Shown: one piece after another, positions 53,101 to 56,100 of the stretch | Layout: the number at the start of each line of letters is the position of its first letter | Numbering within the stretch: position 1 is the first letter of the stretch | IMG/VR virus record: IMGVR_UViG_3300020193_000003 | From: a virus | Reading direction: 5' to 3' (one strand) | DNA length: 64,000 bases | Translations under genes and position numbers: made by a program | Notes under the pieces: generated by a model | The model's input: only the letters and a program-made list of their open reading frames with translations | What the model was told of the DNA's origin: nothing | The model's database searches: none

Positions 53101-56100
53101 GTGGCTCGATCTCGACAGGATGGACGACATCTACCCAGTGGTTGGCACGAACTTCAGCGAGGCCGTCAAGGAGATGCGCAGGACGCTGGGAGGCTTGGCC
53201 CCCGAGGCTGTGTCGGCTGTTTACCGCGGCAGGGACCAGCTCATTCTCGCCGCGGAATCGGCCAACCGCGCGCTGACGCCTGACGCGGACAGAAAGAAGG
53301 CATTGGAGACGATGAACCTGTACGTCATCCCGGTGATAAAAGGCTTGATGGCGGTGCACAGGACAAACATCGAGATCGGGTTCCGGCAGGTCGCATCGTT
53401 TGCCGAGGGTCTGAAGCGCCTGACCCAGGCGACGCCCATGAGCGGGGTACAACGAGAGCTCATGACCATCGCATCACTGCTTGCCGAGTTGCGCCTAAGG
53501 GGATCGATAAACGACGTCACTTACTCCAAGCTGATGATGGAGATCACCCGCGCCGGAGCCACGACCATGTTCGGCGACCTGGAGTTCGGCAACACCGTGA
53601 TGGAAGCCATCGCAAACGGGAGCACCGATGACGTAATGACGTTCATGATGCTGATAGACGACGCCGTCTCGGACAACGTGGACGAGGACAGGCGACGCGA
53701 GTTCATCGACAAGTACAAGGGGTACATGACCGCCGCACAAAGCGCGTTCGGCGACGCCTTCGAGCAGCACATCAGGAGCGGCTTCTACGGAAGCGTGAAG
53801 ACGATCGGCGAGGCGGTGAGGGAGATGGAGCCATTCATCCTCGCCACCGAGCGCGCGCGCAGGAGGAGGATCCTGCTCCAGAGATACAAGCGAGAGGTGA
53901 TTGACCCCGTAAAGGACTCCCTGCTCACCGATGAGGAGAAGTTCAAGGACCTGAGGACCTTCAACGAGTGGCTCGACGCCAGCGGGTTCCCCGACCTCAC
54001 GTACGACAAGGGCAACTCGGGTGGCGACGGCGAGGCGGCGATGTCGGCCACCACGAGGACCGCGATGGCCAGATTCACCGATGACGCCGCGTCCGCGGTT
54101 GTCGAGGGCTACGAGGATTCGGCCAAGTCGGGTTCGTCAAGACTCAACCTCGGGCACATGCTGTCAGGGGCCTGGAGGGCGCTGATGACCGACACGAAGT
54201 CCGGTTCGTACGCGTCGAAACTCAGGAGACTCAACATAAGACCGGAGAGGATGGCCGCGGCGCTTGCGAGCATCACCACCCCGAAGGACGGCCCGTCGCC
54301 GAAACCCACGGATTATTCCAAGGCTGCCAAGAACGCCATGATCGGGGCCATACGGGCCGCCTCCAGGAGGGGCGACGAGTACGTCGATCTCGGCGACCTG
54401 CTGCAGGCGATACTCGACCCGTCACTCAGGGGACGGGACGACGACGGCGTCGAAGAAGCCCTGATGCTCGCCGACATTTCTCCGAACGTGATAAGGATGG
54501 CTATAGCGCAGGCGAGAATCTCGGGCGGCAGGGAGCCGATGTCGGACGCCGAGGCCGGCATGTCCGCCAGTCGCATGGCGATGAACTCCGCCGACAAACG
54601 CGACGACCTGAAGAGAAACAAGATGCTCGCCGACGGCATGTGGTTCAACTCCGACCGACAGGTCCCTGTCGCCACGGGGACTGCGACCGACGGGCAGCTC
54701 GTCGACGAGGTGGAAAGACTCATGAACGTCTACGCCATCGGCGCCGCGAGGTCCGAACTGGAACCCGTGGACTTCCGCAGCGGGGAATCACCCTTCTCCA
54801 ACGCGGCGATCAGGCCGACCAACTCGCGCCTCATCCACGGCGACAACGGCCAGGAGCCGACCGACCTTGTCGGAGCGATCAGGCACGCCATGGACAGGGC
54901 CGACGCCCTGTTGACGGACGAGATGGAGCAACGGAGGTTCCACGAACTCAAGTCAAAGATGCGCCTCTACTTTGACAACGACGAGCACATGCCCGACGAA
55001 AAGGGGGACGCCGAGGCCGGCATGGCGAGAAATTTCAACGAGATGATTGAGCCGATAACGGAGAACTTCGGGCGCTCGGAGAAGATCGGGCAGAGGCAGT
55101 ATTTCGAGGGCATCTACGGCGACGCGGACCTGAGCGAGGCAGAGTTGCGAAAGGCGGCCGACGTCGCATCGCTCGGGTCGCCCTTCGACATATCGCGCAA
55201 CCTCGACGGCAACGAGGACGACGTCAACTGGAGCACGGGCCAGTGGTCGTTCAACAGGGACCAGACCTACGTTGAGGCGGCGGACTCCGTGATGATAAGG
55301 ATGCGAGACGGCGACTTGACCACGGCAGAGATTGCGATGATCTCGCGCAAGAGCGGCCCTTTCAGGGACGCCATGGCCCTCGTCGGCGGACTGAAGGACG
55401 AAGGCGAGGATTTCATGACCACGGCGGCCCGGGAGACGGCGGAGGAGGTCGGAGTTTCCCTCGAGAGGGCGCTACAGGCGCAGTACATCGGAACGATAGA
55501 GTCGCCCGACTGGGATCCCCGGTTCGTCAACGGAGCGAAAGTTGGCGCCGGGATGTTCGTCCTGCCGTGGGACACGCCCCTCGTGGCTGCGTCCGACGCC
55601 GCAGGTGCGCGCTGGGTTCCCCTGTCGGAGATAGCCGCGGGCCAGCACAGGCTCGCCTTCGGGCACGCCGAATGGATACGAAGGGCCGTCGCCGCGATGC
55701 AGATAGACCCGTCGTCGGACCCCTACGGGGACCTTCGTCTCTCGATAGCGATCAGGCTCGGGTTGCTCTCCAAGGCCGCGAGGGTGAGGAACCAGAAGAT
55801 GATCGCCATGGTCAACCTCGTCCGCAGGGCGACGGGCAAGAAGTTGTTCCCCGAGCAGGGCGACATGCCGCACCCGATGATGCCGTGGGGCAACAGGGTT
55901 GCGAGCTCCTCGTGGAGATTCGGGCCCGATGCCGAGGCGGGAATGTCCGCCTCACCCATCGACGACTCACTGCCAAGGGAGCTCGGCCTTCTGTCCGTCC
56001 AGAGCTCGATGCCCCCGCGTCTCCTCGAGAGCGGTGCGGACACCGCGGGCTTCTACAAGGTCGGGCACTCCAGGGGGGGCGACGACTTGTTCTCGGCGTG

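Follow-up and report, generated by a model that had tools for sequence, protein, structure and literature searches.

Mycobacteria cannot do without ClpC1, a drug target whose N-terminal domain (NTD) is the entry point for adaptors, for phospho-arginine (pArg) substrates and for several natural antibiotics. The ClpC N-domain possesses two pArg pockets, which have been probed with the E32A/E106A and T7D substitutions, and a hydrophobic groove, with K85 beside it, to which unfolded substrate, MdfA (an adaptor) and the cyclic peptides bind (PMC12583610), while F2, F80 and E89 are critical for the binding of cyclomarin (PMC10030653). Its relative ClpC2 is a cellular autorepressor and an antibiotic sponge for ClpC1 ligands (PMC10030653), and it keeps one pArg pocket only, formed by T100 and T197 (PMC13345244). 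Here we analyse a stretch of 64,000 nucleotides from an uncultured phage (IMG/VR record IMGVR_UViG_3300020193_000003; hereafter the window), which is coding entirely on the + strand (~62% G+C, all features given below being on that strand) and contains a series of giant open reading frames (ORFs). The largest of these (41156..56887) encodes, with no internal stop, a polyprotein of 5243 amino acids (aa) that ten D-x-E-A-[AG]-M linkers divide into eleven units, and its eighth unit, module 8 (54041..54541; polyprotein residues 4296-4462; 167 aa, 17.8 kDa), is a divergent Clp_N double repeat. The module is, so far, a divergent form of a known domain in the unusual setting of a cargo polyprotein.

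An earlier note on this DNA had read the unit as a ClpC-type Clp N-terminal double repeat and had proposed a Pfam search as a check. In this respect the module was silent, as hmmscan gave no match to Pfam Clp_N (PF02861) at E<=10, and the NCBIfam and PHROG profile libraries returned nothing significant. A homologue with 63% identity scores 18.2 bits against PF02861, for which the gathering threshold is 20.7 bits, and a precomputed table, unlike the direct hmmscan of the module, assigns PF02861 to this ORF and to 6/7 of its relatives. When the PDB was searched with phmmer, ClpC2 chains ranked first and third and a ‘Clp amino terminal domain protein’ fourth, all with weak E-values and with a designed repeat protein in second place; a profile built from four sequences again had ClpC2 chains as its best sequence matches in the PDB (E 2.4e-4 and 7.8e-4). 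Unrestricted phmmer over 1.8 billion representatives retrieved four giant polyproteins and then three true Clp_N proteins (P0007-P0009), which Pfam itself scores as Clp_N (E 1e-19 to 1e-111; P0008, E 9e-26). Aligned with P0008 by hhalign, the phage profile was collinear over both repeats (137 columns, probability 96.1%, E 3.1e-9), and 24 of the 30 clusters nearest to the module in the ESM Atlas are Clp_N.

Structure prediction provided additional support for the assignment. The alignment supplied to the predictor held phage polyproteins only, so that no Clp_N sequence could steer the model, and the result (predicted local distance difference test, pLDDT, 86.3; predicted template modelling score, pTM, 0.84) was an eight-helix double repeat over residues 8-161. 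Repeat 1 (approximately residues 9-80; 54065..54280) starts with A-R-F-T and has predicted helices at 14-30, 37-50, 56-62 and 68-79; repeat 2 (approximately residues 90-161; 54308..54523) starts with Y-S-K-A-A and has predicted helices at 94-110, 117-130, 137-143 and 148-161. In the model, two tandem four-helix repeats thus form one pseudo-twofold eight-helix domain. Foldseek searches with this model placed ClpC/ClpC1 N-domains, alone or within larger ClpC entries, in all of the first ~30 PDB matches (E down to 2.7e-7), the nearest structures being the Mycobacterium tuberculosis ClpC1 NTD (3wdb, 3wdc, 9din) and the Bacillus subtilis ClpC NTD (2y1q, 5hbn); structural scores were 16-17.8 for ClpC types, 15 for ClpT, 14.5 for ClpC2 and 13-14 for Hsp104/ClpB. 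The Clp_N assignment is borne out by hhalign (E 3e-9) and its ClpC type by Foldseek, the peptides quoted in the earlier note are all present in the translation, and we regard it as very probable that module 8 has the Clp_N fold and belongs to the double-repeat superfamily.

The alignments indicate that the scaffold of the domain is conserved while both of its known ligand sites are rewritten. Residue equivalences were taken from alignments to ClpC2, to P0008 and to gp251 of mycobacteriophage Myrna, together with a thirteen-sequence alignment; by our own reading, E32 and E106 would lie within the G-T-E-H motifs, and T100 and T197 of ClpC2 would correspond, by offset, to the helix-1 Thr and to the Thr of the repeat-2 G-T-E-H. 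Where repeat 1 of the canonical domain carries I-G-T-E-H-I-L-L-G-L, module 8 reads N-L-G-H-M-L-S-G-A-W-R, and where repeat 2 carries I-G-T-E-H-L-L-L-A-L it reads V-D-L-G-D-L-L-Q-A-I-L, so that the T-E positions are occupied by L37-G38 and L117-G118. Glu is found at the first of these in 0/10 homologues and at the second in 0/10, where D116 and D119 are invariant. Of the motif G-[TS]-E-H-[IL]-L-L, all ten homologues retain just the repeat-1 His and the hydrophobic positions, and the Thr-Glu pair is gone from both phospho-arginine pockets. The helix-1 Thr (R-F-T) is T13 in the module and is largely kept across the ten homologues, as is the position of the repeat-2 T81, which is S93 here and Ser or Thr among them. 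The cyclomarin-critical groove set is changed at two of its three residues: F2 is replaced by M9 (mostly Met or Ile in the family, also Val) and E89 by I101 (Ile, Val, Arg or Lys, never acidic), with F80 represented by Y92 (Tyr, Phe or Trp, hence aromatic across the family). K85 corresponds to K97, which is kept in some homologues only.

The family also has invariant surface motifs of its own, namely G-A-W-R after the repeat-1 His and D-D-G, and it has loops some six residues longer after helix 2 and helix 6, as well as a conserved 8-residue N-terminal extension before the Clp_N fold. It would seem that one pocket, the same as that of ClpC2, is strongly conserved in a new form, in which T13 is kept and two Asp residues (D116 and D119) stand in for Thr-Glu. 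The groove is still hydrophobic (M9, F12, Y92). Judged by its ligand-site residues, module 8 does not faithfully reproduce the docking head of host ClpC1.

Comparison with the described Clp_N proteins sharpens this picture. Relative to the ClpC/ClpC1 NTD, module 8 has an identity of 18-21%, shows N-L-G-H and D-L-G-D for G-T-E-H, has longer loops and carries its own G-A-W-R and D-D-G; nor is it followed by an AAA+ D1 domain, an M-domain or D2, the next units being a helical unit, a NUDIX hydrolase and a zeta-like kinase. Akin to the C-terminal Clp_N domain of ClpC2 (8ad9, 8b9o, 9p2p), which provided the best sequence matches in the PDB, the module is motor-less, and akin to ClpC2, whose repeat 1 likewise lacks T-E and which conserves only the pocket made by the helix-1 Thr and the repeat-2 motif (PMC13345244), the phage family has its invariant residues at that pocket. 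As opposed to the module, which begins 8 residues before the fold and right after a linker, ClpC2 has an N-terminal four-helix domain for dimerisation and DNA binding; it also keeps G-T-E-H in repeat 2 as well as F2, F80 and E89, whereas the module has none of these and is part of a virion-type polyprotein.

Myrna gp251 and its Phabba homologue (phrog_35667) likewise represent an actinophage Clp_N double repeat without an ATPase (235 aa; Pfam Clp_N, E 1.2e-34). Unlike the module, gp251 is encoded by a separate small gene among non-structural genes and keeps both G-T-E-H motifs together with F2, F80 and E89. The two are related at the profile level only (E 1.3e-6): the module has no match to the phrog_35667 profile at E<=1, which P0008 matches at E 5.7e-34. 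By its residues gp251 looks like a true copy of the ClpC1 NTD and a better candidate for a ClpC1-NTD decoy than module 8. The gp251 gene (EU826466.1, L010 2471-3178) is annotated as ‘Clp family protein, ATPase domain’; its only significant Pfam match is Clp_N, with no ATPase family. Phage manipulation of ClpC through its N-domain has a precedent in Gp53 of SPO1, an adaptor-like protein that binds the ClpC NTD, although Gp53 is a ligand of the NTD and not a copy of it, and is expressed early from the host-takeover module rather than being virion-borne (Mulvenna 2019, PMC6873191). The polyprotein as a whole resembles the polyvalent proteins (Iyer et al. 2017, PMC5512222), in which many unrelated effector-type domains are likewise joined in one head-associated polypeptide and whose survey includes NUDIX and zeta-like kinase domains; that survey mentions a Clp domain 0 times, and the present polyprotein differs in having regular linkers that vary between related phages. 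A text search of the literature combining phage, Clp_N and ClpC gave nothing relevant.

The module is bounded exactly by DGEAAM and DAEAGM, as the earlier note had it: position 54041 is the ATG of DGEAAM, and 54544 is the base before DAEAGM. The ATG (54041-54043) of the upstream linker D-G-E-A-A-M (54026..54043) is the first codon of module 8, and the downstream linker D-A-E-A-G-M (54545..54562) is preceded by a disordered tail (module residues 162-167, pLDDT <50). The D-x-E-A-[AG]-M peptide occurs 10 times in the polyprotein and 20 times in the window, always in frame within giant + strand ORFs, with 0 occurrences on the - strand. Every linker ends in ATG and 18/20 read GAG-GCN-GGN-ATG, which puts GAGG five bases before the ATG. 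A role of the linker as a ribosome-binding site was considered and judged unlikely. The synonymous positions within this phage's linkers vary like background, and related phages carry linker peptides of their own flanking the module (TDAGM/AEAGM, GPVASM, SDSGAM and SDTG[NS]M), of which GPVASM and SDSGAM stand at the same joints without GAGG; both observations argue for selection on the peptide, as would be expected for a protease site. The sequence comparison thus supports the view that the linkers are under selection as a peptide signal, the Shine-Dalgarno-like GAGG probably being a by-product of it.

The module is found at the same place in nine other polyproteins (4972-6391 aa) with 90-30% identity, these homologous polyproteins are co-linear over their whole length, and the module is thus conserved at the same joint across a phage clade whose linkers differ. 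Its divergence is typical of the eleven units, and the ratio of nonsynonymous to synonymous substitution rates (dN/dS) against a distant relative is 0.24. Neither tblastn of the module against 50,697 phage records nor megablast of the ORF gave a match; word-indexed searches yielded no stand-alone or mid-size relative at 95-303 aa or 304-2000 aa, a pattern scan of 185,579 species no cellular copy, the BFVD viral structure library no match at E<=0.001, and a local hidden Markov model of the ten homologues no further copy anywhere in the window.

The polyprotein ORF is followed immediately by the gene for the major capsid protein (57183..58586; phrog_10, E 6e-60), which assigns it to the head module. 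The capsid protein shares 42-46% identity with those of Brevibacterium and Gordonia phages, and because of this resemblance the host of the uncultured phage is probably an actinobacterium. ClpC1 is present in the actinobacterial phylum. In all relatives module 8 is directly followed by module 9 (54560..55021), a helical unit of 154 aa without a Pfam, PHROG or NCBIfam match, whose AlphaFold2 model is helical and too weak (pLDDT 60.5) to bear on a possible role as a partner such as ClpS or MecA, and whose identity to the relatives is 62-38%, with invariant W-F-N, L-V-x-E-V-x-R-L and G-Q-x-P-x-D-L-V-G-A-I. Then come module 10, a NUDIX hydrolase unit (55022..55942; PF00293, E 1.2e-10; phrog_1198), and module 11, a zeta-toxin-like P-loop kinase unit (55943..56884; PF06414, E 2.1e-20; phrog_16619, ‘minor head protein’). 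Several unrelated effector-type domains (NUDIX, zeta-like kinase and Clp_N) are thus united in one head-module ORF, and a domain search detected no AAA+ Clp domain anywhere in it.

Elsewhere in the polyprotein, module 3 (44477-44611) starts with the 15-residue peptide P-D-D-E-P-R-A-I-V-E-P-M-P-E-F in three identical tandem copies, and the N-terminus (41273-41377, residues 40-74) has a sub-threshold match to DUF3721 (25 bits, cut-off 27), close to G-D-C-C-P, a motif invariant among the relatives. The ORF just upstream (40134-41081) matches phrog_17747 and phrog_14910, both of unknown function (E ~1e-21). Further away, the giant ORF 10193-17281, encoding a protein of 2362 aa, has an isolated Sigma70_r4_2 match (residues 1144-1177), and the 5'-open ORF 2-6265 an isolated match to a fragment of RNase_T (residues 542-578).

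How might such a module be used? P1 DarA and the T4 internal proteins are capsid-packaged proteins that are processed by a protease. In the reading that we favour, a head protease would cut the polyprotein at the linkers and free the 18-kDa module, which would then be carried in the capsid and would reach the host cell together with the DNA and with the NUDIX and zeta-kinase units. There it would act as a non-catalytic binding protein that uses the Clp_N scaffold, its pocket re-specified and its groove still hydrophobic, and in the early phase of infection it might hold one particular segment of a host protein or of a co-injected protein. Most likely it would divert something that otherwise docks on ClpC1, or keep unfolded cargo out of the reach of ClpC1 after ejection; phospho-arginine is not what such a module would be expected to soak up. 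We propose this whole chain, from release and carriage in the virion to early action as a re-specified Clp_N binding module, only tentatively, as a reading that is plausible and falls somewhat short of an even chance. A more specific version goes further: as a virion-delivered relative of ClpC2 and the ClpC1 NTD with pocket (T13, D116, D119) and groove re-specified, the module might bind a defined host factor of the ClpC1 pathway, such as an adaptor, the ClpC1 middle domain or a degron class, whereby ClpC1 proteolysis would be reprogrammed or blocked at injection, before phage gene expression. We consider this version unlikely.

Several points count against the proposal. Cleavage, packaging, delivery and interaction with Clp are all steps that we infer, and the fold by itself reveals no function. 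With the canonical ligand residues gone, nothing ties the module directly to Clp any longer, and its target could lie outside Clp biology. The argument from the pocket depends on an alignment at ~20% identity and on a predicted model, and should be read as provisional to that extent. Furthermore, over 41156-56884 of the window the per-unit dN/dS against the closest relative (L005) ranges from 0.09 to 0.57, and the Clp_N unit has the highest value of the eleven (0.57, from only 29 differences), the next fastest being unit 5, at 0.52, and the zeta-like kinase, at 0.47, all on small counts. The net charge of the module is not conserved either, the isoelectric point (pI) ranging from 4.6 to 9.1 among homologues, and is uninformative.

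The alternative that survives best is an intra-virion role, in which the module would have no host target and would be either a part of an internal head body or scaffold, or a holdase for unfolded cargo packaged with it. The ORF stands in the scaffold position beside the capsid gene, the module is fixed and non-swapped at its joint in relatives down to 30% identity, and in ClpB and ClpC the groove of the Clp_N domain is a binding site for unfolded polypeptide (PMC12583610). However, the neighbouring NUDIX and zeta-like kinase units are typical of injected effectors, and a purely structural role would leave the conserved polar pocket (T13, D116, D119) unexplained, and we therefore see this role as improbable, although deserving of consideration.

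The decoy put forward in the earlier note fares less well. Its premises stand in part, as the fold is of the ClpC type, the module is delimited by linkers and has no AAA+ partner, and the probable host bears ClpC1; the residues with which ClpC, ClpC1 and ClpC2 bind their known ligands, however, are not kept. As a faithful ClpC1-NTD decoy, the freed module would titrate pArg-tagged proteins, adaptors and other ligands away from ClpC1P1P2 and thereby protect phage proteins. ClpC2 shows that a Clp_N domain can serve as a sponge for ClpC1 ligands (PMC10030653), and the module does keep the RFT threonine, the aromatic equivalent of F80 and, in this phage, the equivalent of K85. But titration of pArg proteins or ClpC1 ligands should need the residues that gp251 has, and the plain decoy is weakened by their loss: T-E is replaced in both G-T-E-H motifs in 10/10 homologues, Met, Ile or Val stands at the position of F2, and Ile, Val, Arg or Lys at that of E89. 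Moreover, identity to the ClpC1 NTD is just 18-21% and Pfam Clp_N finds no match on the module, while a real phage copy such as Myrna gp251 keeps all of these residues. A decoy of this kind is doubtful.

We give just as little credence to the possibility that the module is never released, the linkers being flexible spacers or internal starts and the module a domain of an uncut giant protein or a separately initiated product. Cleavage at the linkers is so far inferred, and the terminal ATG of every linker, with GAGG five bases before it in 18/20, would suit internal initiation; against it speak the synonymous positions of the linkers, which vary as background, and the linkers of the relatives (GPVASM, SDSGAM), which lack GAGG at the same joints. 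Finally, it is hardly credible that a helical bundle merely resembles Clp_N by chance here, with no relationship behind the match.

Returning to the favoured reading, in which a motor-less, re-specified copy is kept clade-wide as virion cargo, its truth would suggest that recognition of the Clp_N type matters in the first minutes of actinobacterial infection, and a natural protein ligand of the ClpC1 pathway, or a competitor for it, could be derived from the module. A non-enzymatic binding domain would be added to the units found in phage cargo polyproteins. Should the module bind co-packaged cargo instead, it would represent a case in which a capsid carries a chaperone-like domain.

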